From positions 1 to 26,213 of the forward strand of contig CAZPAL010000001.1 of the NCBI GenBank assembly GCA_964584525.1: a stretch of 26,213 nt of DNA. The letters run 5' to 3'. Positions 7,313 to 26,213 of the stretch are shown here, piece after piece. The notes under the pieces are model-generated. The model worked only from the letters and a program-made list of their open reading frames with translations, was not told the origin of the DNA and made no database searches. The first letter of the stretch is position 1. The number at the start of each line of letters is the position of its first letter. Both the position numbers and the translations under genes were made by a program. This stretch comes from an uncultured Dehalococcoidales bacterium. GTDB lineage: Bacteria > Chloroflexota > Dehalococcoidia > Dehalococcoidales > UBA1222.

Positions 7313-7960
7313 TCAGCTCATCAGCTTCAGGCGCGCCAGCGACCACACCGCATCCAGCAGCACCGGGCGCTCCGGAGCGATGCTGCGGAACCAGGCCTGC
7401 CAGGCGGAGTACTGCCCGCAATCGAAAGCGAGCAGGCGGCGCAGGCTGTTCTCGTTGACGTCTTTCATATGGAACGATGGTTCCGGAAAGCGGTCGCCCC
7501 CAGTGATGGTCGGAGCCACGTAATGCAGGTAGTCGTCGCGAAAAAACGACTGCAGGTACAGGATGACAACCCCGTCCAGCGTCACGTGTAAAAAAGGGGA
7601 CAGGCGGCAGGATTCGTCAGCCGGCAATATCTGGCTGCTTTCCACGTATTCTTTGAGGAAAACATTGACTGCCTGCTGGGCTTCACCGTAGCTGACGCTG
7701 CCCCCGCTGCGGGATTTGACCTGCTGGAGGAACGACTGCACGAAGCGGTGGTGACAGGCATCGAACTCTTCCAGCGAGGAGACCGGCCTGAACTCCTGCG
7801 AATACTGCCAGGCCAGCTCCTGCAATTTGGGCAGGAAGTTGCGCTCCATCAAGCGCGACAGCCTGGACAGCAGAATCGGCCCGGCCTCGAACCCGCGCCG
7901 TTTTTCTTCATTCTCGCGCTCGCGGCAGCAGCGGATGAGGTTTTCGTAATCGCACATCAT
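7313..7960 (-). CDS. Hypothetical protein, about 215 aa, translationally coupled to mgsD
   Basis: ATG 7960 overlaps the mgsD stop (ATGA). It fills the gap to the deaminase. Motif-like segments: SYGEAQQAVNVFLKEY, LHVTLD, YSAWQAWFR. Confidence 0.75.
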   Translation of the reverse strand: MMCDYENLIRCCRERENEEKRRGFEAGPILLSRLSRLMERNFLPKLQELAWQYSQEFRPVSSLEEFDACHHRFVQSFLQQVKSRSGGSVSYGEAQQAVNVFLKEYVESSQILPADESCRLSPFLHVTLDGVVILYLQSFFRDDYLHYVAPTITGGDRFPEPSFHMKDVNENSLRRLLAFDCGQYSAWQAWFRSIAPERPVLLDAVWSLARLKLMS

Positions 7961-10032
7961 ATTTTTTCTGAAATGGGGGGGCATGGCGGCAGTATCAATT
8001 CGGATACGGCACGGGCGAACCCTTCCGGCCCTACCCCTTTGACCTTCAGTACCCGGCCGGCATTGATTTTATTCCAGTGGCGCCGCCCGTTCTGAACCAG
8101 CATCGGGTAGTCAACCCTTTCCAGCATGGGGGCGTCGTTTTCGGTATCTCCGAGCCCGAAGGTCTCAATCTGGCCGTAATTCAGTTTGAAGAGCTCATTC
8201 AGAATCTGTACCGCCTTGCCCTTGTCGGCTCCCTGGTTGGCCTCGAAGAAACGGCCGCCGAAGACTACGTGCAGGCCCTGTTTGCGGATGAAGTCCAGCA
8301 TCACCTCGATTTCCCGCCGGGTGCCGGGCAGGATGATGGTCTCGCTGTACTCCCTCTCCTTGGCCAGCTGGGCCATCTTGAGGCTGAGGTCGGTATGGCG
8401 CGCCACCTCTTCAACCGTCATGTCCCCGAAAGACAGAATTTCCTTCCCTGCCTCCTCCGCCGCCAGTTTTAGCCGCTGCCGGATTTCAGCATATGGCACG
8501 CCCAGTTCAATCAGATAGTAATCGCCGCTGACGCGGTCATAGGTGAAGGGGAAACGGAAATAGTCCTTGGGAATCAATATCGCCCCGCCGTTTTCGACGA
8601 TGAAGGGGTCACACACTTCCAGTTCCTGCCGGTAAACGAGTTGCTCGCTGCGTGTTTTGGCGGAGCAGAACACGGTTGGGATTTTCCGGGACTGCAGGCT
8701 GCGCAGGGCTTCCAGCGCAGCGGTGTAGGAATAGCTCACCGGGTGTAACAGCGTCCCGTCCAGGTCGGTGTAGACGATTTTACGGATTGTGCTCGAGGGA
8801 GCGCGGGGCGCCAGGCGGCCTTCCATTACCCAGTCGTCCGGAACCGCTATTTTGGCCAGGTGCCGGTCAAGGGCGCTCATCAGGGTTGTCAAATCCGCCT
8901 GGGCGGGCGGGGGGATCAGGCGTTGAACCGGCACCTGCTCTTCCTCTCCTTCTCCCAGGCAGGACATAGTCCTGAGTTGGTCCATAATCATCTTGCGGGT
9001 TGAAGGCTCGCAGGCCGCGCTGTGATAAATTACCGACAGGCTGGGCAGCAGCATGTCCTGGAGCAGGTGTTCGGAGTCTCCCCGGTCTTCGTGGAGGTGG
9101 GGGTTGACGGTTTCGGTCTGAATTATGTCAACGCCCTTCTCGGTGGCTGTTTTATCGCATATGGGCAGGATGCCGCCGAATTGTTCGAACACCGAGACCA
9201 GTTCCTGGGTTTCGACGCCGTAACCGGTGGCATATGTCAGCCGCATGGCCAATTCCATGCTCATGGCATGCTCCCCGGCGTTGGCTGTTTTGATGATTTC
9301 AGTTTCGAAGCGGCCCTTGGTGGACAGGAAATGGTTGATATGGCGGTTGGTAACCTCGGAAACCCGCCCCCATTTTTTGAAATAGATATCGGTGGTGATT
9401 TTGGGCTTGTAGCGCCACAGGATGCGCACCATCGAGAAGGGCGACTGGGCCAGGGTAAACCCCAGCGCGTAGTGCTTGGCGTATTCCCAGACAGCCCCCG
9501 GAATGAAGTTGTCGGTGTCGATCCCACCGACGTATTCCTTTTCGAGCAGTTTAGCCAGCAGGATGCCGGTAATCATGCCCTCGCTTTTTCCGCTGCGGAT
9601 AAACCCCTGGTCGTCGAGCAGTTCGGCGTAACCCGCCTGTTCGATGGCCTGAGCCATGAAGGGGTCTTTCTGGTGGACGATGAGTGCCCGGCGCTGGGTG
9701 GCCTGGCAGAAGCGGGTAAGTATGTCCTGCTCTATCTTGAAGGTGTCTATCTCTTCGCGCTGGCTGTTGGAAACCACGATGATGGTGCAGTCATGGGGGA
9801 TGCCGCTCAGCACCCCCTCGAACAGCTTCAGGTCTTCGTTCATGGTGGGCAGCACGATAGCCATCTTGCGCTCGACGGCTTCAATGGCTTCGCGCTCGAT
9901 GCGCTGCGTTTCCGTGCTTTCCCTGGCGCCGGGCATGGGCTTGGTGCCGGAATCCAGTTCCACCACGCGGCGCACGCCCTGGATGCGGACCGAACCCAGA
10001 TGTTCAAATGCTCTCATTGCTTCTATGCGCAA
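7957..10032 (-). CDS. mgsD: Bifunctional mannosyl-3-phosphoglycerate synthase/phosphatase (mannosylglycerate synthesis), about 691 aa
   Basis: N-terminal GT55 synthase: GIPHDC.IIVVSNS, SGKSEGM, IDTDN, RILWRYKPK, KWGRVSE, NAGEHAM, NPHLHE. C-terminal HAD phosphatase: YTDLDGTLL, CSAKT, VENG, DKGKAV, LGDTEND. TTG start at 10032 with AAGGAGG 7 nt upstream. Confidence 0.93.
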   Translation of the reverse strand: MRIEAMRAFEHLGSVRIQGVRRVVELDSGTKPMPGARESTETQRIEREAIEAVERKMAIVLPTMNEDLKLFEGVLSGIPHDCTIIVVSNSQREEIDTFKIEQDILTRFCQATQRRALIVHQKDPFMAQAIEQAGYAELLDDQGFIRSGKSEGMITGILLAKLLEKEYVGGIDTDNFIPGAVWEYAKHYALGFTLAQSPFSMVRILWRYKPKITTDIYFKKWGRVSEVTNRHINHFLSTKGRFETEIIKTANAGEHAMSMELAMRLTYATGYGVETQELVSVFEQFGGILPICDKTATEKGVDIIQTETVNPHLHEDRGDSEHLLQDMLLPSLSVIYHSAACEPSTRKMIMDQLRTMSCLGEGEEEQVPVQRLIPPPAQADLTTLMSALDRHLAKIAVPDDWVMEGRLAPRAPSSTIRKIVYTDLDGTLLHPVSYSYTAALEALRSLQSRKIPTVFCSAKTRSEQLVYRQELEVCDPFIVENGGAILIPKDYFRFPFTYDRVSGDYYLIELGVPYAEIRQRLKLAAEEAGKEILSFGDMTVEEVARHTDLSLKMAQLAKEREYSETIILPGTRREIEVMLDFIRKQGLHVVFGGRFFEANQGADKGKAVQILNELFKLNYGQIETFGLGDTENDAPMLERVDYPMLVQNGRRHWNKINAGRVLKVKGVGPEGFARAVSELILPPCPPISEKI

Positions 10033-10217
10033 GGTTTTGCCTCCTTGTGTGGGAACGGCTGGTGAAGATTCCCGGGGTTCCCAGTCCATAAAAGTCGGCG
10101 CAACGCACCGGCGTAAAGCCATGGATTTGTGCGGCGCTTAACAATCACTCGCGGCAGCGGACGCCGCTCACTCCACAATTTAACACACCTCCGGGTCTAT
10201 GTAAACCCCGGCAAATA

Positions 10218-10275: not shown

Positions 10276-10788
10276 TTACTGGAAAGTGAACTGGTAATCC
10301 GGGCGGCTGTAACCGAAAGAATCATCGGTGATGGTAAAGGTGCAGTGGCTGATGAGGATATACCCCAGCACCGGGCCAGCGAATACTCCTTCCACATCCA
10401 CGGTGTAACCCACCTTGAGCGGCATCATCAGTTCGAGATAATCGGTGCGGAAGCGGAATCCCTGGTTGGAGATGAATTGTTCAGGGCTTGGAGGTTTGTA
10501 CACTTCGCTCATATCCTCGATTTTGACATTGCGCACCAACAGCAGCTTGCCGGAATACCTGGCGGCTGTCCCCGCCGGGTCGGAAGCGTATTCGCCGGCC
10601 AGGTCCGCCATTTCGATTTCGACGGCTTGCGGCTGGACCGGAGTGGTGGCGGTTGGGATGGTGGTGGTGGCGGCGGGAGTGGCTACCTCCAGTTGCGTCT
10701 GGCTGGTACCGGCAGGCGCGCACGCAGCCAGCGCCATGAGTAACAGAGCGGCCGAAAAGCCTGCTCCCATAATCCTGTGTGTTTTCAT
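10276..10788 (-). CDS. Lipoprotein with OB-fold (tRNA_anti-like) domain, 170 aa
   Basis: Signal peptide with LAAC lipobox, Thr/Pro linker, and the LAGEYASDP..TAARYSGKLLLV pattern. SD GAGGAG 6 nt upstream. Confidence 0.75.
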   Translation of the reverse strand: MKTHRIMGAGFSAALLLMALAACAPAGTSQTQLEVATPAATTTIPTATTPVQPQAVEIEMADLAGEYASDPAGTAARYSGKLLLVRNVKIEDMSEVYKPPSPEQFISNQGFRFRTDYLELMMPLKVGYTVDVEGVFAGPVLGYILISHCTFTITDDSFGYSRPDYQFTFQ

Positions 10789-10947: not shown

Positions 10948-11673
10948 ATGACCATCAATACTGCCCGCCGCACCATGAACATCTGGATTGCCGTTACTCT
11001 GCTTTCTGTCTTCGGCATTTTCGCGCCGTCAATCTTCGGCCTGGACGGCATGGACGGCGGCTTTGCCATCTCCTTCGCCTGCCTGTTGCTGGCCATTACC
11101 GCTTTCATCGTCATCTTCATGTACCGCGGGCGGGCCAGAGCGGTGGACAAGATGCTCGAAGGCTCGAACATACTGGTGCGCTGGAAATACAGCGAGGGCG
11201 AATGGGCGGAATACACCGAGAACTCCTATCAGGCCGAAAAGTCCGGCAAATGGGGGTTGTATCTGTTCGTGATGGCCATTGCCGCCGTGGTGTGTTTCTT
11301 TTTCTGGATATTCGTAGAGGATTCCGGGTTAATCATGGTGGGGGTGATGGGCGGCCTGGCCGTGATTCTGGCGCTGACCATCCTCATCACCACCAATTAC
11401 GACCGCTGGCAGAACCGCAGACACCTGGGGGAAGCCATCATCAGCCGAGACGGCGTTTATATCAACCGCTTGCTGCACCTCTGGCGCGGATGGGGGGCCA
11501 GGCTGGACGGGGCTGAATACAACCGGCGCGAGCGCATGCTGGAATTCACTTACTCCGCCCCCTCGCGAACGGGGCGCAACTACGCCACTGCGCGCGTGCC
11601 CGTACCCACCGGGGCGGAAGCCAGAGCGGAAGAAATCCTGGCGTCGTTCACCGGCGGCAGGGAACGGGAGTAG
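10948..11673 (+). CDS. Hypothetical membrane protein (about 4 TM), 241 aa
   Basis: Two pairs of hydrophobic helices separated by LVRWKYSEGEW. Good promoter and SD. No family recognised. Confidence 0.8.
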   Translation: MTINTARRTMNIWIAVTLLSVFGIFAPSIFGLDGMDGGFAISFACLLLAITAFIVIFMYRGRARAVDKMLEGSNILVRWKYSEGEWAEYTENSYQAEKSGKWGLYLFVMAIAAVVCFFFWIFVEDSGLIMVGVMGGLAVILALTILITTNYDRWQNRRHLGEAIISRDGVYINRLLHLWRGWGARLDGAEYNRRERMLEFTYSAPSRTGRNYATARVPVPTGAEARAEEILASFTGGRERE

Positions 11674-11674
11674 T

Positions 11675-12430
11675 TCACGAAAAAAGCGTGCGGATGCGGT
11701 TTTCCAGAGCGGCGGCTGCCGGGTTGAACCTGGAACGCGGGCGGGGGGAGGCGACTTCCAGTATGCCCCTGATGGAAGCAGGCCGCCCCGAGAGCACGAT
11801 TACCCGGTCAGCCAGATAGACCGCTTCCTGGGGGTCGTGCGTAACCCACACCATGCTTTTGCCGGTGCGCGCCCGGATGGAGATGATTTCATCCTGGAGT
11901 TCCTCGCGCGTGCGCACATCCAGCCCGGTGAGGGGTTCATCCAGTAAAAGAACATCTGGATTGGTAACCAGGGCGCGGGCCAGCGCCACCCTCTGGCGCA
12001 TACCGCCGGAAAGCTGGTGCGGGAACGCCCCGGTGAAGTCAGGCAGCGATACAATGCTCAGGGCGTCCGATATGGCGGCTTGCTCTTTCGCTCCCAGCTC
12101 CTCCCCGCGCAGTTCGAAGGGCAAACCGACATTGCCGGCGGCGGTGCGCCAGGGAAGCAGCCTGGGTTCCTGAAAGACCATGCCGATATGCTGCCGGTGC
12201 TGGCGTTGAGTGCCGACCTCATGCCCCATCAGCCGGACGCTTTCCTGCCTGGAGGGGAGCAGGCCGGCCACGATGCGCAGCAGGGTGGTTTTACCACAGC
12301 CGGAAGGGCCCAGTATACATACGATTTCCCCCTGGTAGATGCTGAAGGTTATGTCCTCCAGCACCTTGAGGCGGTCGAAACTGTGCTCTAGGCGTTCAAC
12401 CTTCAGGATTTCTGTTCGGTTGGTTTCCAC
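11675..12430 (-). CDS. ABC transporter ATPase, NitT/TauT (SsuB/TauB-like), 251 aa
   Basis: GPSGCGKTT, VFQEPRLLPW, LSGGMRQR, LLLDEP and VTHD. Confidence 0.96.
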   Translation of the reverse strand: METNRTEILKVERLEHSFDRLKVLEDITFSIYQGEIVCILGPSGCGKTTLLRIVAGLLPSRQESVRLMGHEVGTQRQHRQHIGMVFQEPRLLPWRTAAGNVGLPFELRGEELGAKEQAAISDALSIVSLPDFTGAFPHQLSGGMRQRVALARALVTNPDVLLLDEPLTGLDVRTREELQDEIISIRARTGKSMVWVTHDPQEAVYLADRVIVLSGRPASIRGILEVASPRPRSRFNPAAAALENRIRTLFS

Positions 12431-13167
12431 TGGCGTATATACTTCCTGTCGATATAATTGAAAAGACCGTAATCCGTCATGAGCAGGATGAGCGCGAAGG
12501 CCAGCGTCCAGCCGAAAACCTGCGTGATACGGTAGCTTTCGAAGGCGATGGTGAGCATGTACCCCATGCCCGAAGCCGCGCCGAAAACTTCACCCAGAAT
12601 CACCACTTTCCATGCGACCATGGCTGAACTCCTGACAGCGGCGAAGAGGTAGGGATAGAGCATGGGCAGAATCACCCTGCCGAGTATGCGGGCGCGCCGG
12701 CTGGTATACATGGAGGCCATTTCTATCAGGTTGTTATCCAACTCCTTCATGCCCTCCCAGATATTGATGATGAAGAAGGGAGCGACGGCCACGGCCACCG
12801 CCAGGATGGGGGTGGCATCCGACAGCCCGAACCACAACACGAAAACCAGCGCCCAGCAGATGGTGGGGACCGATTGCAGAAGCGGATAAATCACCGTTCG
12901 CACAGCCGTGCGCAGCAGGTTGGAGTAGCGCGTGGCGATACCTAAAAGCGCGCCTAAAGACGAACCCAGCGCCATGCCCATCACCACGCGGTAGGTGGTG
13001 ATGCCGATGTGTTCCCAGTTGCGCGCCGAAAAGACGATGTCCATGAAAGCGAGCAGCGTCTGCCACGGGGTGGGGAAAAGCACGGATTCGGACAGCGCAG
13101 CCACCGCCCACCACAGCAGCCAGAAAATGGCGGTGACCAGCGCAGTCAGCAGTGCTTTTTTTACCAT
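12403..13167 (-). CDS. ABC transporter permease, NitT/TauT family, 254 aa
   Basis: LFPTPWQT, ITTYRV..G...G...G, EAA-like LIEMASMY..R..ILGRVILPMLYPYL, and WKVVILGEV. Confidence 0.93.
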   Translation of the reverse strand: MVKKALLTALVTAIFWLLWWAVAALSESVLFPTPWQTLLAFMDIVFSARNWEHIGITTYRVVMGMALGSSLGALLGIATRYSNLLRTAVRTVIYPLLQSVPTICWALVFVLWFGLSDATPILAVAVAVAPFFIINIWEGMKELDNNLIEMASMYTSRRARILGRVILPMLYPYLFAAVRSSAMVAWKVVILGEVFGAASGMGYMLTIAFESYRITQVFGWTLAFALILLMTDYGLFNYIDRKYIRQWKPTEQKS

Positions 13168-14168
13168 TTTTCGAACATAGCGCTTGCCTGCGGCAGGTTG
13201 CCTATGATTCCGCGGTCTTTGACGAAGCCGAAGATGGACATCACGCTGGTTTCCAGTTTGCCTTCCACCGCATCGAAAGTCACCCGGTAGTGCAGCCGGT
13301 AGGCATTCTGATAAAACTCGGCGCTGCCGCCGAATTCGGCCACGTACTTTTGCGACAGCTCAACCAGCCGCTCCTCTCCGTATTGCTGGCTTTCCTTGAG
13401 CAACTCATATATGGCTTTGGCTGTCTGGCGATTGTTTTCGAGGTACCCGGCCTGTACGGCCAGGAACGACGCCGGGTTATAGGTGCCGTACTTCTGCTCG
13501 AAAGCCTGGTCCACGTTCCACAGCACCTTGAAATCGGTGCTGTAGAAAGTTTGCACCGAAGGGTCGCCCAGCAGCAGGGCGGCGTCAATATCGCCCTTGC
13601 GCAGGAATTCGATGAGCTGCGGCGGGGCGCCGTCAATCATGGTGAGCTGGCTTTCATCGATGCCGTACTGGCTTTTGAGCATGCCCAGGAAGGTGCTGGC
13701 AGTGCCGCTCTGAAGGCCGGGCACGCCCACCCGCTTTCCCGCCAGGTCGGCGGGCGAACTGAGAGAACCGCCCTGGCGGATATAAACCACGGCCACGCCG
13801 CTGGTGGCCTCCAGCCCGGTATGCGCCAGATAGACACCCATCGTTTTGAGCGCCACTGCGCTTCTCTCGGTGGCCACCGCGAAAGCGGCGGTGTTCATGG
13901 CGCCGATGACATAATTGCCGGCCAGCATCTGGTCGTCGAATTTGAGCGACTGGTCTACGGTCACATTCACCTTGTCCGAGGTGACCTCGCCGCTGGTGAT
14001 GCCGTAAGTGCACAGCCAGCTCCCGAAATAGGGCGCCATGACGATGCTCACCGTCGGTGTTTCGGTGGGTGCGGTGCGGCAGCCGGCAACTGACGGAAGC
14101 ACCAGCAGGCAGCCGAGCAGAAGGCAAAGCACGAGGGTCCACTTTTTATGAGTCAATTTTCCCTCCAT
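13161..14168 (-). CDS. ABC substrate-binding lipoprotein, SsuA/THI5-like (type 2 periplasmic-binding fold), 335 aa
   Basis: VAGC lipobox, SPADLAGKRVGVPG, and LRKGDIDAALL. Starts 4 nt after the prenyltransferase stop. Confidence 0.9.
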   Translation of the reverse strand: MEGKLTHKKWTLVLCLLLGCLLVLPSVAGCRTAPTETPTVSIVMAPYFGSWLCTYGITSGEVTSDKVNVTVDQSLKFDDQMLAGNYVIGAMNTAAFAVATERSAVALKTMGVYLAHTGLEATSGVAVVYIRQGGSLSSPADLAGKRVGVPGLQSGTASTFLGMLKSQYGIDESQLTMIDGAPPQLIEFLRKGDIDAALLLGDPSVQTFYSTDFKVLWNVDQAFEQKYGTYNPASFLAVQAGYLENNRQTAKAIYELLKESQQYGEERLVELSQKYVAEFGGSAEFYQNAYRLHYRVTFDAVEGKLETSVMSIFGFVKDRGIIGNLPQASAMFEKW

Positions 14169-14172
14169 CGTG

Positions 14173-15120
14173 TTATGCGCTATTTGTTAACCCGTCCATC
14201 AAAAAAGTGAGGCTCAGAGTAAGGGGAGAAAGCATCAATCCCAGAAAGCCTTGGCGGCAGGCAAGTTCCAACCCCTGGCGGGTGCGCCAGCGGCCGTTGA
14301 GCATGGGTACCAGGCTCCAGCCCAGGTACAGCGCCGGCCCCAGGTTGAGGGCAGCCCAGGGCGAGCGCGTGATGAGGAAGGTGGGGATGAAAAGCAGGAT
14401 GGCGGCTGCCATCAGTACGATGTAAACGCGGCTCATGCGTTCCCGCCCGAAGATGACGGCCAGCGTGCGCTTGCCGGCGGCGGCGTCGGCTTCGGCATCC
14501 GGAAAAGCGCGCAGCAGCTTGATGGCCGGCACGGCGGCGAACTGGGTTGAAGCCACCGCTACCGGCAGCCAGCTCAGGCCGGCCTGTGTGTAATAGATGG
14601 TGATGATGAGCAGCCCGTAGCCCGCCATCATGAATATTTCCCCCAGGCCGCGGTAGGCGGCCTGGATAGGCGGCGCGGTATAGAACCAGCCAATCAGCAT
14701 TCCCGCCGCGCCCAGCGGGATGGTGAGCGGCCCGGTATTGAAATGAAACTGCAGCAGCAATCCGAGCGGCGCCGCCAGCAAGAAGAACAGCAGCGAAGCT
14801 AAAAGCGCGTGCCTGAGCGGGATGAGCCCTTCTACCAGCACCCGCGTGCCTCCGGTGCTGGTCAAGCCCTGCCTGCGGCCTCCCAGCCGCCCCAGATTGA
14901 TGCGGTCGGTTTCATAATCGAAATATTCATTGGAGATGAAGGCGCCGTTGGCGATAAAAAAAACAGAAATGAGCGTGATAAGGAAAACCGGCCAGGAGAA
15001 AATGCCGGTAGCCCACCATGCCAGCACGCCGCCCAGCGCAATGCGGAAGACGACGGCGATATGTTTAGGCAGTTCCTGGATTTCTATCCATGCCCTAAGA
15101 TTGGATTTGAACGGTGACAT
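14173..15120 (-). CDS. UbiA-superfamily prenyltransferase, MenA-like (copy 1), about 315 aa
   Basis: NEYFDYETD (Asp-rich motif I), FYTAPP..AYRGLGE and RAFPDAEADAAAGKRTLAV (motif II); highly hydrophobic. I chose start 15120 by alignment with copy 2; ATG 15126 is an alternative. Confidence 0.88.
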   Translation of the reverse strand: MSPFKSNLRAWIEIQELPKHIAVVFRIALGGVLAWWATGIFSWPVFLITLISVFFIANGAFISNEYFDYETDRINLGRLGGRRQGLTSTGGTRVLVEGLIPLRHALLASLLFFLLAAPLGLLLQFHFNTGPLTIPLGAAGMLIGWFYTAPPIQAAYRGLGEIFMMAGYGLLIITIYYTQAGLSWLPVAVASTQFAAVPAIKLLRAFPDAEADAAAGKRTLAVIFGRERMSRVYIVLMAAAILLFIPTFLITRSPWAALNLGPALYLGWSLVPMLNGRWRTRQGLELACRQGFLGLMLSPLTLSLTFLMDGLTNSA

Positions 15121-15382
15121 GTTCATTTTCTGATTCGGCCGGGCCGGCAATTTCCCGGGCCGGCTAAACGGCGCCCCATTTTTCACCTGTGCCGGAACGC
15201 AACATAACTCAGGGCAATATATGATAGCAGAGAGCCTGCCTTTTTGTCATGAGCCCCGGGGGCCTACATCGAGTCAAACCCCGCATTGCCGGGTCTGCCT
15301 CTCTGTATGCGCCGGGGTGGTAAAAAGGGTAAAATGCAAGCGGCGGCAATTCGGCTGCCGGAGTGCCGGGGAGGGGTTTCCG

Positions 15383-16594
15383 ATGAAGATGGCGCAGCAG
15401 GAACTGGACGAAGCGCGCAGGCTGGAGCGGGTGTTCATTTTTCACCGGTGGCTCTACGTTCCGGCTGTTCTGCTCACCGCTTGGCTGTATGGCTGGCTCA
15501 GCCAGCCGCTGGTGATGCTGGCGTCCGGCGGGCTGGCGGCTGCCAATATGGCAGCCCATCTGATAAACGGCAGGCTGGGCACCCTGCGCGCCCAGGCGGC
15601 GCTGGGCGCCTGCCTCTTCGCGGTAGACAGCCTGGCAGCCTGGGCGTTGATAATCCTGGGCATGTCTAACGGCCAGGGCGCAGTCTATGTTGTATTCGCC
15701 CTGATTATCGTCGAGGCCGCCACGCGTTACAGCCTGTGGGGTAGCCTGGCCACGGACATCGTTTTCGCGCTGGGTTTGTACCTGCTCTGGTTTGCGGGGC
15801 CGCGGAACCCGGGTGAAAACTTTACGGCGGCGAACTATCTGGTGGCGGTGGGAGTGCTGTCGTTTGTGTCCCTGATGGTGGGCATGGTCGCTCGCGAATG
15901 GCGCAAACAGCGTCGCTTTGCCGAGCAACTGGCGGCGGACAAGGCTTCATTGCTGGAAAGGCGGCGCATCTCCAACGAACTGCATGACAGCGTTCTCAAG
16001 AGCCTGCAGGGACTGGCGCTCGAGGCGCATGCCCTTGAGCGCGACAGCGCCAGCGGCGCCGCACGGTCGGCGGGAGAAAGGGCCGGCTATATCGAGGATG
16101 TCTGCGCGCAGCTCAGCCAGGAGATAAGGGGTGTCATTTTAGGACTGCGCGATGAGGGGGCGGGTGAGGATTTAGTCCGGCGCATTACCGGCCTCCTCAA
16201 GGCGTGGAGCGAAAAAACCGGCATCGCCGCCGGGTTCACTCATGGCGGAGATGTGCCGCCGCTGCCGCCCAGGATGGCGCATGACCTGCTGAGGGTTATC
16301 GAGGAAGGGCTGGCTAACATCGCCCGTCATGCCGGAGCGTCGCGGGCCGAGGTTTTCCTGGAAGTCAGCGAAAACCATCTCCGGCTGATGATTCGGGATG
16401 ACGGCTGTGGTTTCGCGGCGGATGCGGGGGAGATTTATGCGTTCGTGCGCCAGGGCAAGCTGGGGCTGGTTTCCATGAAAGAGCGGGTGGAGCTGGCAGG
16501 GGGGCGTTTTACCATCGAAAGCGGGCCGGGGGGGACGGTGTTGACCGCTGGTATTCCCCTGGCCGGTGGGGGTCCTGCGGAGACTGATAAATGA
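15383..16594 (+). CDS. Membrane sensor histidine kinase, HisKA_3 (NarX/DesK-like), about 403 aa
   Basis: About 6 N-terminal TM helices with no large extracytoplasmic loop. ERRRISNELHDSV H-box, EGLANIARHA, DDGCGF, GLVSMKER. Start 15383 after GGAGGGG. Confidence 0.93.
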   Translation: MKMAQQELDEARRLERVFIFHRWLYVPAVLLTAWLYGWLSQPLVMLASGGLAAANMAAHLINGRLGTLRAQAALGACLFAVDSLAAWALIILGMSNGQGAVYVVFALIIVEAATRYSLWGSLATDIVFALGLYLLWFAGPRNPGENFTAANYLVAVGVLSFVSLMVGMVAREWRKQRRFAEQLAADKASLLERRRISNELHDSVLKSLQGLALEAHALERDSASGAARSAGERAGYIEDVCAQLSQEIRGVILGLRDEGAGEDLVRRITGLLKAWSEKTGIAAGFTHGGDVPPLPPRMAHDLLRVIEEGLANIARHAGASRAEVFLEVSENHLRLMIRDDGCGFAADAGEIYAFVRQGKLGLVSMKERVELAGGRFTIESGPGGTVLTAGIPLAGGGPAETDK

Positions 16595-17241
16595 ACATTA
16601 CCAGGGTGTTCATCGTCGACGATAATTTTATCGCCCGCCGCGGGTTACGCAGCACGCTGGAAACGGAAGCGGGCATAAACGTGGTGGGCGAGGCTTCGAC
16701 AGGGGTAGAAGCCATCGGCAGCCTGCCCGTTTCAGATGTGGATGTGGTCCTTATGGATATCCGTATGCCTGAATTGGGAGGCATAAATACCGCTGCCGAG
16801 TTGCTCAGGCAGGCGCCCGATTTGAAAATCCTGATGCTGACGGTGGTAGACGACCCGTTTACGCTGGCCGGCGCGCTGGCGGCAGGGGCCGCGGGTTACC
16901 TGGTTTACGGCCATTTTTCCCCGGAGCAACTGGCGGAAGCGGTTTTCCGGGTGGCCGCAGGGGAAACGGTATGCCTTCCGCCTCTGACGGACCTTTTCCC
17001 GGTAGAGGGGGGAGAAGCGGCGGAGGCGGGAATTGGGGCACGGATTTCCGCCCTCACGCCGCGCGAGCTCGAAGTTCTGAAGCTGATAGCCGCCGGCAGG
17101 GAAAACCGGGAGATTGCTCAAGCCCTGGGCATCGAAGAGAAAACGGTCAAGAATCACATCAACAGCATATATTCCAAACTGGGGATTTCCAACCGGCAAC
17201 AGGCGCTGCTGTGTATGCTGGATGCACGTTTTAGAAGTTGA
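16591..17241 (+). CDS. NarL/LuxR-family response regulator, 216 aa
   Basis: IVDD, LMDIRMP (phospho-acceptor Asp), and LTPRELEVLKLIAAG..N.EIA..L.I.EKTVKNHINSIYSKL HTH. ATGA overlap with the kinase. Confidence 0.95.
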   Translation: MNITRVFIVDDNFIARRGLRSTLETEAGINVVGEASTGVEAIGSLPVSDVDVVLMDIRMPELGGINTAAELLRQAPDLKILMLTVVDDPFTLAGALAAGAAGYLVYGHFSPEQLAEAVFRVAAGETVCLPPLTDLFPVEGGEAAEAGIGARISALTPRELEVLKLIAAGRENREIAQALGIEEKTVKNHINSIYSKLGISNRQQALLCMLDARFRS

Positions 17242-18175
17242 TGAACCCGTCCAGCACGAAGGTGACTATCAAAGTCAGCGGCGTTAACAGCAGCCCCTGA
17301 AATCCCGTGCGGCAGGCGGCCTCCAGTTGCTGGCGGTTGTGCCAGCGGCCTCTCAGCATGGGCACCATGCTCTGCGCCAGGAAGACAGCCGGGATGACGT
17401 TGATAAGAGCGAAGGGGGAGCGCGTCACCACCGCAGCGGGGATGAAGGCTAGAATCGCCGCCCCAGTCAGGATGGCATAAAGGCGGCTGGCGCGCGCTTG
17501 CCCTATAATAACCACCAGCGTCCTTTTGCCGGCCTGGGCGTCGGCGCGCGAATCGGGGAAATTGCGCAGTATTTTGAGCGCCGGTACGCTGAGTATGCGC
17601 GGCAGGCAGATGAGCAGCGGAAACCAGCTCGCGCCGGCCTGGATATAGTATGCCGTGAAAACCAGGGCGGCGTAACCCAGCATCATGAAGAGTTCCCCCA
17701 TGCCCCGGTAGGAAGCCTTGACCGGCGGGTTGGAGTATCCGTAGGTAAAGAACAGCCCCGCCACCCCCAGCGGAATGGTCCACGCCCCGGTATTGAAGCC
17801 GAACTGGATGACCAGCCCCAGCGGCACGGTCAGCGCGAAAAATGCCATGCCCGCTATCAGTACATGGCGGCGTTTCAGCCGCCCCTGCACCAGCACCCGC
17901 GTGCCGCCGGTGGTGTCCAGTCCCATGCCGCGCTTCTCGCCGCCGATGCGCTCGCGGTTCAGCCGGTCGCTTTCATAGTCCTGGTATTCGTTGGTAAGAT
18001 AGATGCCGTTGGCCATGAAAAATACCGCCAGCAGGCCGGCGATGAATACGCCCCAATGGAACTGGCCGGCGTGGTACCAGGCCAGCACCGAACCCAGCAC
18101 GAACGAAAAGACATCGTTGGAATGGCGGGGGAATTTTTGCACCTCAATCCAGGCCTTTAAACTGTTCGTGGACAT
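17231..18175 (-). CDS. UbiA-superfamily prenyltransferase, MenA-like (copy 2), 314 aa
   Basis: NEYQDYESD, YSNPP..SYRGMGE and RNFPDSRADAQAGKRTLVV. SD AAGGAG. Collinear with copy 1. Confidence 0.88.
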   Translation of the reverse strand: MSTNSLKAWIEVQKFPRHSNDVFSFVLGSVLAWYHAGQFHWGVFIAGLLAVFFMANGIYLTNEYQDYESDRLNRERIGGEKRGMGLDTTGGTRVLVQGRLKRRHVLIAGMAFFALTVPLGLVIQFGFNTGAWTIPLGVAGLFFTYGYSNPPVKASYRGMGELFMMLGYAALVFTAYYIQAGASWFPLLICLPRILSVPALKILRNFPDSRADAQAGKRTLVVIIGQARASRLYAILTGAAILAFIPAAVVTRSPFALINVIPAVFLAQSMVPMLRGRWHNRQQLEAACRTGFQGLLLTPLTLIVTFVLDGFINF

Positions 18176-18282
18176 GGCTCCTTTTCTTTCTGTGCGATAT
18201 GGGCAGGCGCGTATTCCAGGGTCAAGCCCGCACGGCTGTCAACCGCTGCTCGCGCAGGCCGGCCAGCAAAGCGGACGAGTGT

Positions 18283-19992
18283 TTATTTTTTGCCGAAGAG
18301 CGCATTCCAGGCGGCTGAAAAATAGCGCAGGCGTATCAGCCCTACCGGGATTTCGAGTTCCAGCCGCTCTGCCGCCTGGAATCCGTTGACGCTGTCCATC
18401 TCCGGTTTCAGCCGGGCGATGCCGGCGCTGTCCTCGTTTTTCATCAGCGTGTCGATTTTCTCCTCCAGCACCCTGGCGCGCCGGATGCGCTCCAGTTGCT
18501 CGTCGGCCGCTTTCTGGGGAATCTGCCCGTACCTGGCCTTAAGCGCCGTCAGGCGGGCAATGGCTTCGTAAGTGACTTCGGTAATTTCATCGCGGCTGAG
18601 CCACTGGGTCTCGTAATTGATGCTGTATTTCCAGCTGGGCAGGGTCAACGCCCGGCGGTGCTCCTCCAGCGTTTTAAAGCGCAGGCGGAAACCGTAACGT
18701 TCCGGGTATTCGAAGGCCAGCGAGCCGGGCGCCATGAAAGGCGCCTGGTGCCCCATGAACAGGAAGAGGCGTTTATCTGCCTTGAATTTTTGCAGCAGGT
18801 GTTCGCAGTAGTCCACCGTGTCCAGCACCGATTGCCTGTCCTGTTTTTGCAACCCTATCATGAAGAATATTTCCAGCCGGCTGGCTCCCGCCTCTAGGGC
18901 GGCGCCAATCATCTTTTCCATGTCTTCATTCGAGAAATCCCGTCCCAGCGAAAGGCGGCGCACCTCCGGGTCGTGCGACTCCGGCGACATGTCCAGCGAA
19001 AAACCGGGTGCCGCTTCGGCCATGCCAGCGATAAACTGCGGGGACATGGGGTTGAAGGCCTCGAACATCAGCGTGTTTTTTACCCGCCTGGCCTTGATGA
19101 GCGACAGCAGCCGCTCGGCGCGCTCCATTCCGCCTTCGCGGATGTCGCCCACAATCAGAATCGGCCCGCGGCTGATGCGGCTGATGTTGAGCACATCCTT
19201 GAAGATGTCCTCCGGGCTGCGCCGGGCTACCTCGGTACGGTTGGCAAAACCGCTCATGGCGTCGCGCGCCCCCGCGCAGAAAATACAGTTATAGACGCAG
19301 CCGCGGCAGGTGAAGACGGCCGTCACCGGGTATTTCAGCCAGCCCTTGAAAGGAACCACGCTGGCCAAGTCGCGGTAACGTAGCACCTGCCTTACCATCA
19401 GGCCGTAATGGTTACCCATCACATGGCTGATATCGGTTGGGACATAGCTGAAGGGGTTTTCATGCACGGCGCCGGCGCCGTCTTTCCAAACCAGGTTGGG
19501 AACCGCGCTAAAATCACCCTCTTTGAAGGCCCGCATGAACCTGAGCAGGGGCTCCTCGGTGGAATCGCCGCGCATGACGAAATCAACTTCGGGATATTGG
19601 ATGAGTTCCCTGTAGAAACGCGAAGCGGAGAAACCGCCGAAGATTATTTTGGAATGCGGATGGTGTTTTCTGACCAGTCCGGCAATTTCTATCGAGCCAT
19701 GGGCGTGCACCATCCAGTGCAGGTCTATGCCGAAGATGGGTGCTTCGAGCTTGCGGATGAACTCCCCGGCATCGAAACGCGCGTCTCGCAGCATGCGCCA
19801 GGCCAGGTTGACGATGCGCACCCTGAAACCGGCTCTTTCCAGGTATTCGGCGATGCTGGAAAGCCCCACCGGATACATTTCGAATACCGGCGTGGAAAGC
19901 ACCAGGTCGGATACCGGGCCGTAGAGCTGGGGAATGCGGCGGAAATCATATACATGCGGGGCATGCAGCAGAATTATGTCCGGGTTAGCCAT
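18283..19992 (-). CDS. Cobalamin-binding domain / radical SAM protein (resembles the TIGR04190 Ta0216 family), about 569 aa
   Basis: N-terminal B12-binding Rossmann-like region: YPVGLSSIAEYL, IIFGGFSAS, VDFVMRGD. CxxxCxxC = CVYNCIFC; SPESHD. The start DIILLHAPHVYDFR..LYGPVSD resembles TIGR04190 as I recall it (no HMM run). Start set at 19992. Confidence 0.88.
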   Translation of the reverse strand: MANPDIILLHAPHVYDFRRIPQLYGPVSDLVLSTPVFEMYPVGLSSIAEYLERAGFRVRIVNLAWRMLRDARFDAGEFIRKLEAPIFGIDLHWMVHAHGSIEIAGLVRKHHPHSKIIFGGFSASRFYRELIQYPEVDFVMRGDSTEEPLLRFMRAFKEGDFSAVPNLVWKDGAGAVHENPFSYVPTDISHVMGNHYGLMVRQVLRYRDLASVVPFKGWLKYPVTAVFTCRGCVYNCIFCAGARDAMSGFANRTEVARRSPEDIFKDVLNISRISRGPILIVGDIREGGMERAERLLSLIKARRVKNTLMFEAFNPMSPQFIAGMAEAAPGFSLDMSPESHDPEVRRLSLGRDFSNEDMEKMIGAALEAGASRLEIFFMIGLQKQDRQSVLDTVDYCEHLLQKFKADKRLFLFMGHQAPFMAPGSLAFEYPERYGFRLRFKTLEEHRRALTLPSWKYSINYETQWLSRDEITEVTYEAIARLTALKARYGQIPQKAADEQLERIRRARVLEEKIDTLMKNEDSAGIARLKPEMDSVNGFQAAERLELEIPVGLIRLRYFSAAWNALFGKK

Positions 19993-20048
19993 AAGGCAGC
20001 CTTTCAGGGGGATTTTTACCTGTACCAAACCATTGAAACAGTAGTTGA

Positions 20049-20078
20049 ATTATAATCTCAAGACGGGATTATTAGCAA
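20049..20078 (-). promoter_or_regulatory. Candidate sigma70 promoter for the radical SAM gene (TTGCTA-N18-TATAAT)
   Basis: Reverse complements of TAGCAA (20073-20078) and ATTATA (20049-20054). A second TATAAT on the + strand (20099-20104) faces the PLP enzyme, giving back-to-back promoters. Confidence 0.5.
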
Positions 20079-20179
20079 AACCGGGCTTTCCGGCGTATTA
20101 TAATTGCTATGCGGGCAGACGGCCGCGAACCGCCGGCTCCCGCTCGAATCTGTTTTTCGACTGCCAGAAGGAGCGAAAC

Positions 20180-21319
20180 ATGAAGTTTGAAACCCGGGCC
20201 ATGCACTCCGGCCGCCGTCCGGACAAAGCCTACGGCGCGGTTTCCAGCCCCATTTATCAGACCTCGACCTTCGTCTGGGACGACGTGGACAAAACGCGCG
20301 GCTACGACTATTCGCGCTCGGCCAATCCCACGCGGCAGGTGCTGGAGGAGACACTGGCGGCGCTGGAGAGCGGGCGGGCTGCTTTCGCCTGCGCCAGCGG
20401 CATGGCCGCCGAGATCACCGTCATGCATCTTTTAAGCGCGGGCGACCACGTCATCGCCACGCATGACCTTTACGGCGGCACCTACCGGCTGCTGGCTGAA
20501 ATCATGCCGCGCTTCGGTATCGAAACTACTTTTGTACGCATGGACAACCCGGCTGACATCGAAGCCTCCCTGCGCTCCAATACGCGTATGGTGTGGCTGG
20601 AAACCCCCTCAAATCCGCTGCTTGGCATTACCGACCTGGCCATGGTGACCGGTTTCGCCCGGCAGCATGAACTGCTTACCGTGATGGACAACACCTTCGC
20701 CACCCCCTATCTCCAGCGGCCGTTCGAATACGGCGTGGATATCGTGGTGCATTCTACCACCAAGTATCTCAACGGGCACTGCGACGTGGTCGGCGGTGCC
20801 ATCGTCACCCGCGATGAAGAAATGACGCGCCGCATAGCCTTTCTGCACAATGCCCTGGGGTCTATCGCCGGGCCCTTCGACTGCTGGCTGGTGTTGCGCG
20901 GCATCGAGACGCTGGCGGTGCGCATGCGCCAGCATGTCGCCAATGCCCAGGCGGTGGCCGAGTACCTGGAAAAACACTGCGCGGTGGAGAGGGTGTATTA
21001 TCCCGGCCTGGAATCGCACCCCGGGCACGCCCTGGCCGGGCGGCAGATGAGGGGCTTCGGCGGCATGGTCTCCTTCGAGCTCAAAGGCGGGGTGGCGGCG
21101 GTGAATTCCTTCCTGCGGGGCATCAAGCTCATCTACCTGGCGGAATCGCTGGGAGGCACGCATTCGCTGGCCGAATACCCGGCCAGCATGAGCCATGCCA
21201 CCATGACGCCCGAATACCGCCGCAGCGCGGGCATCAAGGATAATCTGGTGCGGCTCTCGGTGGGGTTGGAAAACATCGAAGATTTATGGGCGGACCTGGA
21301 GCAGGCGCTCACTGCCTGA
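20180..21319 (+). CDS. Cys/Met metabolism PLP-dependent enzyme (cystathionine gamma-synthase/lyase family), about 379 aa
   Basis: PIYQTSTF, YSRSANPT, SGMAA, DLYGGT, ETPSNP, DNTFATP, HSTTKYLNGH (PLP Lys), AESLGG and RLSVGLE. SD AAGGAG before ATG 20180. Confidence 0.93.
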   Translation: MKFETRAMHSGRRPDKAYGAVSSPIYQTSTFVWDDVDKTRGYDYSRSANPTRQVLEETLAALESGRAAFACASGMAAEITVMHLLSAGDHVIATHDLYGGTYRLLAEIMPRFGIETTFVRMDNPADIEASLRSNTRMVWLETPSNPLLGITDLAMVTGFARQHELLTVMDNTFATPYLQRPFEYGVDIVVHSTTKYLNGHCDVVGGAIVTRDEEMTRRIAFLHNALGSIAGPFDCWLVLRGIETLAVRMRQHVANAQAVAEYLEKHCAVERVYYPGLESHPGHALAGRQMRGFGGMVSFELKGGVAAVNSFLRGIKLIYLAESLGGTHSLAEYPASMSHATMTPEYRRSAGIKDNLVRLSVGLENIEDLWADLEQALTA

Positions 21320-23870: not shown

Positions 23871-24083
23871 GTTCTGCGCTCCTTTTTCGGGGTGATATTG
23901 GAGGTTTCGTCCAATTTTACCAGCCCGAAGGTTACAAAGTCCTAAAATTATCGGCTAAAAGATAAAGAAAGGATTACATCCTTGTCCCGTTCAATGAATC
24001 CCGGAGTTCCGGGCGTGGGGCGGCTAACCCGGGGCTTGAGGCGGCGTTGTATAATGGGATGGTATCCAGCGGAGGGGTTTGTC

Positions 24084-24959
24084 ATGACACTCAGATTTGG
24101 CGGCGGCATGGCGGCAATGCTGGCTGTCTGCGTCCTGCCGCTATGCGGCGGCTGCGCGGAACCCGAAGGATTCGCTGTTTACCTGACGGAAGGGGATATA
24201 CCCCCGGTCCGCATGGAAGCCCTGAGCCACGTAAAAATTGCCGGCCGGCCGGTTGTGAGCGTCGAAGACATCATCACCTACAACGCCGGCACTCATGAAA
24301 TTACCCTGACTGCCGGCGCCTACGAACGTGTTTCCAACCTGGCTGTTCCAACACACGGACGCTCGTTCGTGGTGTGCGTTGATAGAGCGCCGCTATACTG
24401 GGGGGCTTTCTGGACACCGATTTCTTCCCAGTCGTTTTCCGGTGTGGTCATTCAAAAGCCGTTCGGCCCCGCAACCGGCACGACTATCAAAATAGAAATG
24501 GGGTATCCATCCCCCGCTTTTCGGCAAGGCGCGGACCCCCGCGAAAACGCGGACGTTTTAGCTTCCCTTCAGCAAGCCGGCAAGCTAATCAACACCCCGC
24601 CTTCAAGCATGCTGCCACCCATGATGAAGGGTTACGAGCTGTATTCCTGGGTGGAAGATGACCGGTGGCACTTCGTGCTGATGCCGGGCACCAATCGTAA
24701 CAAGACGCTAGCCGAGGTCGTCGCCGTCAAAAACGGGATTTCCATGGACGGATGGGCTCATGTAACCGGGATGACGGCTCTCGACGACCTGATGCGCCGA
24801 CTGCCCCCGCATGAATACGTCTCCTGGCTGGGCGAACTGCGGGAGGAGGCGGCAACCTGCTGTGCCGTCAACATCACCCTCCCGCCGCCGGCCGCAGTGG
24901 AAACGGTGAAAACGACCGCCGCCGCCTGCTCATTGAATCTGAGCGTGCCGGCGCCGTAA
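24084..24959 (+). CDS. Two-domain hypothetical lipoprotein, about 291 aa
   Basis: Signal peptide ending CGGC. TATAAT at 24050-24055 and GGAGG SD support ATG 24084. No function recognised. Confidence 0.75.
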   Translation: MTLRFGGGMAAMLAVCVLPLCGGCAEPEGFAVYLTEGDIPPVRMEALSHVKIAGRPVVSVEDIITYNAGTHEITLTAGAYERVSNLAVPTHGRSFVVCVDRAPLYWGAFWTPISSQSFSGVVIQKPFGPATGTTIKIEMGYPSPAFRQGADPRENADVLASLQQAGKLINTPPSSMLPPMMKGYELYSWVEDDRWHFVLMPGTNRNKTLAEVVAVKNGISMDGWAHVTGMTALDDLMRRLPPHEYVSWLGELREEAATCCAVNITLPPPAAVETVKTTAAACSLNLSVPAP

Positions 24960-25460: not shown

Positions 25461-26213
25461 ATGAAAATAATCAAGATTATGCCCTGCCTGGATATGAAAA
25501 ACGGGCAGGTGGTGAAAGGCGTGAATTTTGTGGACCTGAAATACGCCGGCGACCCAGTCGAGAACGCCGTGTTTTACCAAAAGGAAGGCGCCGACGAACT
25601 GGCCATGCTGGATATTGCCGCCACGCTGGAAAACCGCAAAACCCGGCTGGAGTGGATTAGAAGCGTCTCAGCCGTCATCGACATCCCGCTGACTGTGGGC
25701 GGCGGCATCGCCTCGCTTGAGGACATTGAGCTGGTGCTCGGCGCTGGGGCCGCCAAGGTCTCGATTAACAGCGCGGCGGTTAAAAACCCTGAATTGATAC
25801 GGGAATCCTCCCGGCGGTTCGGTCTCGAAAGGATTACGGTTGCCATCGACGGGCTCAGAAACAACGAAATGCCGTCGGGTTTCGAAGTGATGGTCTCCGG
25901 CGGCACCCGCACAGCCGGGCTGGATGTCACCACCTGGGCGCTGGAATGCGAGGAGCTGGGCGCGGGAGCCATACTGCCGACCAGCATGGACGGCGACGGC
26001 ACGCAGAAAGGCTACGACCTGGATTTTACCCGGGCGGTGTCGGAAGCGGTTGGCCTGCCGGTCATCGCCTCAGGCGGCGCGGGTACGCTGGAACATTTTT
26101 ACGAAGCCGTGGACGAAGCCGGCGCTGAAATCCTGCTGGCCGCCTCCGTTTTCCATTTCCGCATCCTGAGTATCAGACAGGTCAAAGAATACTTGAGAGA
26201 AAGAGGCCTCCGG
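25461..26213 (+). CDS. hisF: Imidazole glycerol phosphate synthase cyclase subunit (partial; 251 codons, runs off the window end)
   Basis: Translated by hand (absent from the ORF track because no stop is in the window): MKIIKIMPCLDMKNGQVVKGVNF..GDPV..DELAMLDI..PLTVGGGI..KVSINSAAV..VAIDG..TSMDGDGT..GYD..PVIASGGAG..LAASVFHF. Confidence 0.93.
   Translation, partial: MKIIKIMPCLDMKNGQVVKGVNFVDLKYAGDPVENAVFYQKEGADELAMLDIAATLENRKTRLEWIRSVSAVIDIPLTVGGGIASLEDIELVLGAGAAKVSINSAAVKNPELIRESSRRFGLERITVAIDGLRNNEMPSGFEVMVSGGTRTAGLDVTTWALECEELGAGAILPTSMDGDGTQKGYDLDFTRAVSEAVGLPVIASGGAGTLEHFYEAVDEAGAEILLAASVFHFRILSIRQVKEYLRERGLR

Follow-up and report, generated by a model that had tools for sequence, protein, structure and literature searches.

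A cobalamin-binding radical S-adenosylmethionine (radical SAM) enzyme of family TIGR04190, a UbiA-type prenyltransferase and an ATP-binding cassette (ABC) importer of the NitT/TauT type are encoded together in uncultured Dehalococcoidia and very probably work as one functional module. We examined this system in a stretch of 26,213 nt from an uncultured Dehalococcoidales bacterium (GCA_964584525.1, contig CAZPAL010000001.1, positions 1-26,213; hereafter the window), in which the region under study spans positions 11,675-21,319. On comparison of gene neighbourhoods the module is specific to the Dehalococcoidia and three-part, and its clustering is not chance. We consider the chances evenly balanced that it turns a scavenged precursor into a prenylated membrane cofactor of menaquinone-like type. 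Judged by its gene content, it would apparently be an undescribed variant of quinone-salvage biosynthesis.

The strongest evidence for a single module is the conservation of the gene neighbourhood. Genomes representing bacterial and archaeal species were scanned with an alignment of the radical SAM protein; more than 560 stretches matched, of which the best 80 were kept as loci, and look-ups of exact proteins added eight contigs (L081-L088). The clade containing the radical SAM protein of the window was defined from a tree. Within this clade a UbiA gene adjoins the radical SAM gene in 14 loci and is absent in L006 and L007. It lies directly 3' of the radical SAM gene in 13 loci (the window, L001-L005, L081-L084 and L086-L088) and is divergent from it in L085. 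Genes for a binding protein, permease and ATPase accompany the pair in every one of the ten loci long enough to be judged (the window, L004 and L081-L088), so that the genes proved to be together rather than scattered, the outcome that would have told against the sequence-only reading with which this work began. The ten contexts examined for the binding-protein family likewise all fall within the module.

The three parts occur in four layouts. In layout (a) the radical SAM and UbiA genes are followed by a response regulator and kinase on the opposite strand and then by a second UbiA gene, binding protein, permease and ATPase; this is the arrangement of the window, L081, L084 and L088, and in part of L005. 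Layout (b) has three nitroreductase-family genes on the opposite strand between the radical SAM-UbiA pair and the importer (L004, L083, L086 and L087; partial in L002 and L003, where the contigs stop short of the importer). In layout (c), that of L082, five genes (radical SAM, UbiA, binding protein, permease and ATPase) make up one compact operon on the same strand, and layout (d), in L085, has the radical SAM gene divergent from a UbiA-binding protein-permease-ATPase-DAGK series. The neighbourhood is thus kept through rearrangement and down to 49% UbiA identity, which argues for selection on the neighbourhood itself.

Other genes of the region are less constant. The second UbiA gene, which the sequence-only reading had listed, was found in one of the four module variants only, and the divergent Cys/Met pyridoxal phosphate (PLP) enzyme that it had counted as a cluster member is not conserved with the module. 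The upstream neighbours differ between loci, with ThiN in L081, UvrB in L082, a lipoprotein gene and an ABC-2 operon in L083 and L086, and a radical SAM paralogue in L005 in place of the PLP gene, and the divergent PLP arrangement is repeated in one Anaerolinea locus only (L067). We therefore set the PLP gene aside as a module member.

The radical SAM protein matches TIGR04190, as the sequence-only reading had guessed, with 597.6 bits against a cut-off of 500 (NCBIfam; residues 17-533 of the open reading frame, ORF, aligned), and its translation probably starts at 19992, because its relatives are 569 aa long. The B12-binding and radical SAM domains score E = 1.2e-14 (PF02310) and E = 2.2e-10 (PF04055), and the CxxxCxxC motif (C232, C236 and C239) is invariant in the family alignment. 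Searches of the PDB retrieved no sequence relative. An AlphaFold2 (AF2) model with a mean predicted local distance difference test (pLDDT) score of 78.7 gave the cobalamin methyltransferase TsrM as its top PDB fold match (E = 3e-17), with MgmA, AprD4, TokK, OxsB and CysS as further matches. TsrM methylates an aromatic sp2 carbon. The architecture is not HemN-like: a B12-binding domain is present, no HemN-type family matched, and HemN (1olt) appeared as a weak, partial fold match (E = 1.2e-5). By domain architecture and predicted fold, the protein is a class B (cobalamin-binding) enzyme. The family is named after Ta0216 of Thermoplasma acidophilum, an organism in which methylated menaquinone reaches 97% of the quinones in anaerobic growth (PMC10821996). 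The family name, this quinone and the TsrM fold match together are circumstantial support for the route proposed below. In the searchable literature, including that on B12 radical SAM enzymes with menaquinone or with UbiA, we found no description of TIGR04190 (Ta0216) or of the module, which agrees with the earlier view that the system is undescribed. TIGR04190 proteins also share a conserved C-terminal tail that is basic and hydrophobic; as it is merely moderately amphipathic, we dropped it as evidence of membrane binding.

Independent lineages link TIGR04190 to menaquinone-type genes. In a sister Dehalococcoidia clade (50-59% identity; L010, L014-L017 and L021) the genes run DUF62 SAM hydrolase, MenA, UbiE/MenG (if present) and radical SAM, with the MenA proteins scoring 155 bits (PRK06080 models) and UbiE 201 bits against a cut-off of 158; a search of the flanks of these loci for men and mqn genes found none. 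Six metagenome-assembled genomes (MAGs) labelled KSB1, Cytophagia or Zhuqueibacterota carry radical SAM, MenA and then a conserved ORF of ~126 aa, and the MenA of L055 passes TIGR00751 (105.7 bits against a cut-off of 102.15). The expectation that TIGR04190 co-localises with MenA-type genes was thus borne out in lineages independent of one another. An Actinomycetota MAG (L032, 839-11140) encodes Rex, a HepS-like protein, TIGR04190, a HepT-like polyprenyl synthase, a TPR protein, TatC and hydrogenase genes, the last comprising NiFe(Se) small and large subunits, a cytochrome b subunit and a maturation protease. This order mirrors hepS-menH-hepT of Bacillus, in which the menaquinone methyltransferase gene stands in the middle. 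Taken together, the associations of TIGR04190 with menaquinone-type genes span three phyla or more and show no fewer than three gene orders, and the chance adjacency of a single-copy menA to a given gene is roughly 1 in 1,000 per genome. The MenA, MenA plus UbiE/MenG, and HepS/HepT neighbours tie TIGR04190 to late menaquinone-type biosynthesis.

The two prenyltransferases of the window, UbiA1 in the importer operon and UbiA2 beside the radical SAM gene, are 55% identical. Both have the UbiA fold (PF01040) and retain the two Asp-rich motifs that MenA requires, NxxxDxxxD and DxxxDxxxG, which are invariant in the alignment (N62/D66/D70 and D208/D212/G216 in UbiA2). The closest named subfamilies for both are MenA and UBIAD1, and UBIAD1 (8djk) is the sole match of UbiA2 in a sequence search of the PDB (E = 5.6e-6). 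The UbiA tree divides the proteins into old orthologous groups, that of the binding-protein side (UbiA1) and that of the radical SAM side (UbiA2), which jointly form a clade restricted to Dehalococcoidia; on this tree the two are old paralogues. The clade is separate from the MenA of the sister clade, with 25-30% identity between them.

As in other NitT/TauT-type systems, the importer consists of an NMT1-type binding protein, a BPD_transp_1 permease and an ABC ATPase encoded in one operon. The UbiA1 gene ends 4 bp from the binding-protein gene, the binding-protein and permease genes overlap by 7 bp and those of the permease and ATPase by 28 bp, and these junctions indicate that UbiA1 and the importer are one operon. 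The binding protein carries a lipoprotein signal peptide ending in a lipobox (...VAGC) and is therefore a real extracytoplasmic receptor. It scores 23.3 bits against PF02621, the MqnA/MqnD family, where the gathering score is 26, and its orthologues in L085, L084 and L081 reach 38.7, 31.7 and 28.4 bits. A search of 5.8 billion proteins returned a family of 43 members, all at least 40% identical and most with a precomputed PF02621 match. On these comparisons the family is small, module-specific and placed between the NMT1/TauA and MqnA/MqnD families.

The indications of the ligand are mixed and indirect. The top fold neighbours of the AF2 model of the binding protein (pLDDT 88.7) are 4,5-dihydroxyphthalate decarboxylase, TauA, PqqT, which binds pyrroloquinoline quinone (PQQ), and SsuA, followed by MqnA/MqnD (~1e-13 to 1e-14) and ThiY, with Thi5 also among the neighbours. 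As PqqT, 4,5-dihydroxyphthalate decarboxylase and MqnA/MqnD are binders of aromatic acids or quinones, we count them for a quinone-type ligand, and the model fits a ligand that is small, anionic and possibly aromatic. The resemblance to MqnA/MqnD is a weak hint about ligand type. We rejected the idea that the protein is itself an MqnA/MqnD-type enzyme on the grounds of its signal peptide, its operon with a permease and ATPase and the result of a PDB profile search given below. The equivalog cut-offs were missed for TauA (46 against 304 bits), the SsuA family (27 against 163.5) and SsuC (95 against 347); the best NCBIfam matches of the permease, SsuC and SaoP, lie far under their cut-offs, and the ATPase is under every NCBIfam equivalog cut-off.

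From these components we propose a route in which the binding lipoprotein and importer would take up a soluble, probably anionic aromatic head-group precursor, UbiA1 and UbiA2, given their family and intact catalytic motifs, would add a polyprenyl tail, and the TIGR04190 enzyme would tailor the prenylated product, most likely by C-methylation of the ring or chain, as its class and its genomic partners elsewhere suggest. In layout (b) the nitroreductase-family genes could hold an imported quinone reduced for prenylation. This idea is made less arbitrary by distant MenA-like proteins (P0208 and P0210, 32-35% identical to UbiA2) that have Flavodoxin_2/FMN_red domains, of NAD(P)H:quinone reductase type, fused to them. 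That the product is quinone-like seems to us slightly better than an even call, and that the radical SAM step is a methylation is evenly poised; 1,4-dihydroxy-2-naphthoate (DHNA) itself is a rather unlikely ligand. The broader claim that TIGR04190 is the first cobalamin radical SAM family in menaquinone-type biosynthesis (e.g. of methyl-menaquinones, and perhaps of thermoplasmaquinone in archaea), coupled here to what would be the first ABC importer dedicated to a quinone head-group precursor, is tentative, and we would regard it as somewhat unlikely. Of the import-prenylate-radical-methylate system put forward by the sequence-only reading, the conserved module stands, and the MenA neighbours give weight to a quinone-type product; the head group, the methylation and the electron-carrier product are what we infer.

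Several observations weigh against a quinone-salvage function. Much of the synteny is confined to one bacterial class. UbiA1 and UbiA2 fall well short of the MenA models (54 bits for TIGR00751 with a cut-off of 102.15, and 86 bits for NF004751 with a cut-off of 264), and because they form a clade of their own, their acceptor need not be naphthoate. The sequence-only reading had noted that men, mqn and ubi ring-synthesis genes are missing from the window; Pfam and NCBIfam scans of the window ORFs confirmed this, and found no UbiE or polyprenyl synthase there either. About 38 TIGR04190 loci of Anaerolineae type have MoxR- and PfkB-type neighbours and no UbiA neighbour, and selA lies directly 3' of the TIGR04190 gene in L041, L074, L077 and L079 (two Thermodesulfobacteriota MAGs, a 'Proteobacteria' MAG and an unclassified bacterium). 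Cyclisation, desaturation and ring contraction are further reactions of class B radical SAM enzymes (PMC13459092). By sequence, TauA is the closest protein of solved structure to the binding protein (1e-7 with the single sequence, 3e-9 with the family profile), and a PDB search with the family profile retrieves no MqnA or MqnD chain.

The alternative that survives best, although we hold it to be distinctly unlikely, is that the product is an isoprenoid lipid, with UbiA using a non-aromatic acceptor or building a polyprenyl lipid and TIGR04190 methylating, cyclising or desaturating the chain, as Grs, Gmm, Cgm and Ted do on tetraethers. The known lipid-modifying class B radical SAM enzymes do act on isoprenoid chains (PMC13459092), and after TIGR04190 the best NCBIfam match of the radical SAM protein is HpnR (47 bits, E = 1e-12). 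A TIGR04190 paralogue shares an operon with an ABC-2 exporter and DAGK_prokar, of the lipid/polyprenol kinase family, a DAGK gene follows the importer in L085, polyprenyl synthases flank TIGR04190 in L032, and the low MenA scores of the UbiA proteins would also be consistent with a lipid. However, the nearest named UbiA subfamilies are consistently MenA and UBIAD1, with models for enzymes dependent on geranylgeranylglyceryl phosphate (GGGP) and for digeranylgeranylglyceryl phosphate (DGGGP) synthases scoring much lower, UbiE/MenG is an operon partner in the sister clade, and the import of a soluble precursor suits a head group better than a lipid.

It is very unlikely, in our view, that the radical SAM-UbiA pair is the sole functional unit and the importer an ordinary nutrient transporter (for sulfonate, taurine, phosphonate or thiamine pyrimidine) kept by descent, with the two-component system regulating nutrient uptake. 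In sequence the transporter parts come closest to Tau, Ssu and PhnT types, the fold of the binding protein has ThiY and Thi5 among its neighbours, Thi4 and ThiN are encoded directly upstream of the radical SAM gene in L081, and all of the synteny lies within Dehalococcoidia. Descent explains less well why UbiA1 heads the importer operon with a 4-bp gap, why all five genes of L082 follow in series on one strand, why the neighbourhood survives four layouts and the divergence of UbiA noted above, and why every examined context of the 43-member binding-protein family is in the module. The transporter cut-offs are, in addition, all widely missed. A thiamine-pyrimidine importer, suggested by the NMT1/ThiY fold and by the Thi4-ThiN genes of L081, was considered separately and rejected, as the window contains no riboswitch that we could find, the thiamine pyrophosphate (TPP) type included, and thiamine genes occur in one locus. 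These two genes (L081, 8394-9816) lie on the same strand as the radical SAM gene.

Ordinary menaquinone biosynthesis, in which a full men/mqn pathway elsewhere in the host would make the UbiA proteins redundant MenA isoenzymes and the radical SAM enzyme an accessory, with no salvage, would suit the bona fide MenA and UbiE beside TIGR04190 in the sister clade and a view of the host genome limited to 26 kb, but it is highly improbable given the distinct UbiA clade, the tight coupling to a dedicated importer and the reported lack of quinone synthesis in cultured Dehalococcoides and Dehalogenimonas (PMC5736913).

The quinone-salvage proposal can be placed against several known systems. While Dehalococcoides and Dehalogenimonas are reported to be without quinone synthesis, deep-sea Chloroflexi single-cell genomes carry only menA and ubiE (PMC5736913). 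Salvage of DHNA through menA and ubiE is established, and up to 2017 neither DHNA nor menaquinone had a described transporter (PMC5738691). As in the gut and oral bacteria that salvage DHNA (PMC5738691), the module would use a soluble ring precursor made by a neighbour, MenA-type prenylation and then methylation, so that ring-synthesis genes are not needed. In contrast to that pathway, its prenyltransferases are a separate clade under the MenA cut-offs, its cluster has no UbiE and instead a cobalamin radical SAM enzyme as the adjoining tailoring enzyme, and it encodes an ABC importer in the prenyltransferase operon. The known C-methylases of the menaquinone ring (MenK, MqnK and MenK2) are class C, HemN-like enzymes (PMC10114718). 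They share with TIGR04190 the radical SAM superfamily, a genomic tie to late menaquinone steps and a plausible role in making low-potential methyl-menaquinones, whereas the module enzyme is class B, with an N-terminal cobalamin domain and a TsrM-like predicted fold.

Similar comparisons can be drawn for each part of the module. The UbiA proteins share their fold and both Asp-rich motifs with UBIAD1 and MenA, and UBIAD1 is the best match of solved structure; they differ from these in their 25-30% identity to MenA-type proteins, in an insertion of ~12 residues after the first Asp-rich motif and in missing the TIGR00751 and PRK06080 cut-offs. Like TIGR04190, HpnR, HpnP, GrsA/B, Gmm, Cgm and Ted have a B12-binding domain followed by a radical SAM domain; these lipid-modifying enzymes act on membrane isoprenoids, and the C-terminal helix of Grs is thought to engage the substrate (PMC13459092), which may be compared with the conserved tail of TIGR04190. 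The similarity is nevertheless at superfamily level, as the HpnR score illustrates, and the partners of TIGR04190 are MenA-type rather than hopanoid or tetraether genes. TauABC, SsuABC, ThiXYZ and the PQQ importer with PqqT have the same three components and the same binding-protein fold as the module importer, which is set apart by a tiny, module-specific binding-protein family with an MqnA/MqnD-like Pfam signal and by its co-transcription with a prenyltransferase.

If the broader claim is true, uncultured Dehalococcoidia, which are widespread, build a respiratory quinone by cross-feeding, in a class whose cultured members are regarded as quinone-free. The proposal would give TIGR04190, a family widespread in anaerobes, its first function and substrate class, add a second and mechanistically different enzyme class to quinone tailoring, and supply a candidate for the quinone-precursor transporter reported as undescribed in studies of quinone cross-feeding. 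It would also reopen the use of membrane quinones by environmental Dehalococcoidia and affect models of their energy metabolism. The module genes are small and expressible, so the hypothesis is directly testable.

The kinase and regulator of layout (a) provide a candidate control for the importer operon. The pair is of NarL type, its kinase combining HisKA_3 with HATPase_c and its regulator REC with GerE, and the two genes overlap by 4 bp; the regulator occupies the same position in L005, L081, L084 and L088. The kinase probably starts at M55 (15383), as its relatives are 397-402 aa long and M55 is preceded by GGAGGGG. Its N-terminus is of multi-pass membrane type, with four hydrophobic segments over threshold (residues 128-224), short loops and no sizeable external domain, which suggests intramembrane sensing. 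Between the divergent kinase and UbiA1 genes lies the palindrome GGCCCCCGGGGC fused to TCATGAC(A). The exact 19-mer GGCCCCCGGGGCTCATGAC lies on the minus strand at 15246-15264, with one copy in the window where 0.01 would be expected by chance; it is identical in L081 and L084 and, by alignment, near-identical in L005 and L088. The 19-mer continues into the -35 hexamer of a promoter-like site whose -10 is extended (ATGACA-18-TATCAT with TG, 15250-15221), and is not present upstream of the radical SAM gene. Because this palindrome-promoter arrangement is conserved, the two-component pair most likely controls the UbiA1-importer operon, through the element at 15221-15264. The suggestion that the system has its own two-component regulator thus stands in part: the conserved promoter element ties the pair to the importer operon, but the pair occurs in one of the four module variants only.

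The nine genes listed by the sequence-only reading were all recovered by Pfam and NCBIfam scans, intact and in the positions it gave (Table 1). The G+C content is 55-67% over the window, and the region shows no compositional break.

Table 1. Coordinates of the genes and candidate regulatory sites of the region in the 26,213-nt window.
Feature	Coordinates	Strand	Family match or remark
ABC ATPase	11675..12430	-	PF00005 ABC_tran, E = 1.7e-36; last in UbiA1 operon
Permease	12403..13167	-	PF00528 BPD_transp_1, E = 2.6e-20
Substrate-binding lipoprotein	13161..14168	-	PF09084 NMT1, E = 2.5e-9, 37.8 bits
UbiA1	14173..15126 (listed ORF start 15186)	-	PF01040, E = 2.8e-31; heads importer operon
Palindrome and promoter-like site (candidate)	15221..15264	-	Conserved; lies between UbiA1 and divergent kinase gene
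HisKA_3 histidine kinase	15383..16594 (ORF 15221-16594)	+	HisKA_3 and HATPase_c
NarL/LuxR-type response regulator	16591..17241	+	PF00072 (REC), E = 4.7e-23; PF00196 (GerE), E = 4.1e-20
UbiA2	17231..18175	-	PF01040, E = 1.2e-30; 3' of radical SAM gene
B12-binding radical SAM	18283..19992 (ORF to 20028)	-	TIGR04190; PF02310 and PF04055
Promoter-like site, radical SAM-UbiA2 pair	20049..20078	-	TTGCTA-18-TATAAT, 10/12 positions; consensus match only
Cys/Met PLP enzyme	20045-21319	+	PF01053, E = 9.6e-156

The PLP protein scores 506 bits against the cystathionine gamma-synthase model, for which the cut-off is 513. Promoter-like sites for the radical SAM operon (20078-20049, minus strand) and for the PLP gene (20072-20101, plus strand) lie within window positions 20045-20110, inside the 5' end of the listed PLP ORF; the start of this gene is probably later than listed, since alignments of the family begin near residue 42.

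Several further features accompany the module in other loci. The three tandem nitroreductase paralogues of layout (b), found in L002, L003, L004 (12950-15173), L083 (11420-13646) and L086 (7601-9824), replace the kinase, regulator and UbiA1. The best NCBIfam match of the two L086 paralogues that were scanned is BluB, at 82-86 bits with a cut-off of 150. A link to the cobamide lower ligand was set aside, as these scores are below the cut-off and the nitroreductase genes are absent from the variant of the window. Beside the module and divergent from it, several loci (L004 5784-9172, L083 3172-6947, and L086 and L087 51-3823; also L003, L005 and L009) carry a second TIGR04190 paralogue, 58-63% identical, in an operon whose gene order is DrrA-like ABC ATPase, ABC-2 membrane protein, radical SAM, DAGK_prokar; it is absent from the window, and its operon partners suggest that it has a role in export or one linked to a lipid kinase. 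In L081 (18352-20289), L084 (8137-10161) and L088 (7751-9778) the importer ATPase is followed by the gene of a conserved 645-675-aa protein for which neither Pfam nor NCBIfam gave a match; here the window has a 241-aa multi-pass membrane ORF that is unrelated and lies on the other strand (10948-11673). L084 and L088 also have GGR and UbiE-like genes at a distance of 5-7 kb from the module, which were considered and set aside; the methyltransferase is weakly UbiE-like and adjoins a corrinoid protein, and is for these reasons probably unrelated.

Among the more distant TIGR04190 loci, the ~126-aa ORF (L047, L055 at 12648-13028, L056, L071, L072 and L078) gives a sub-threshold STAS match as its sole family signal. 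In a Dehalococcoidia clade (L010, L011 and L014-L016), selD-selA come after the TIGR04190 gene, with selB next in L010, L011, L014 and L015. In L079, FdhE-like and patatin genes are found upstream.

The other substantial ORFs of the window are housekeeping genes or have no family match, and nothing within the window points to organohalide respiration. They include PAP2, KsgA, IspE, PlsY, rubrerythrin, a CCA-adding enzyme, a TadA-like deaminase, DUF981, GNAT and Usp. ORFs 7313-7984, 10276-10788, 23982-24959 and 25574-26002 are without a family match; in that at 10276-10788, a hydrophobic segment at the N-terminus resembles the signal of a lipoprotein. A 721-aa protein encoded at 7957-10122 on the minus strand fuses mannosyl-3-phosphoglycerate synthase to a HAD phosphatase domain, and would serve as a bifunctional enzyme for mannosylglycerate, a compatible solute.

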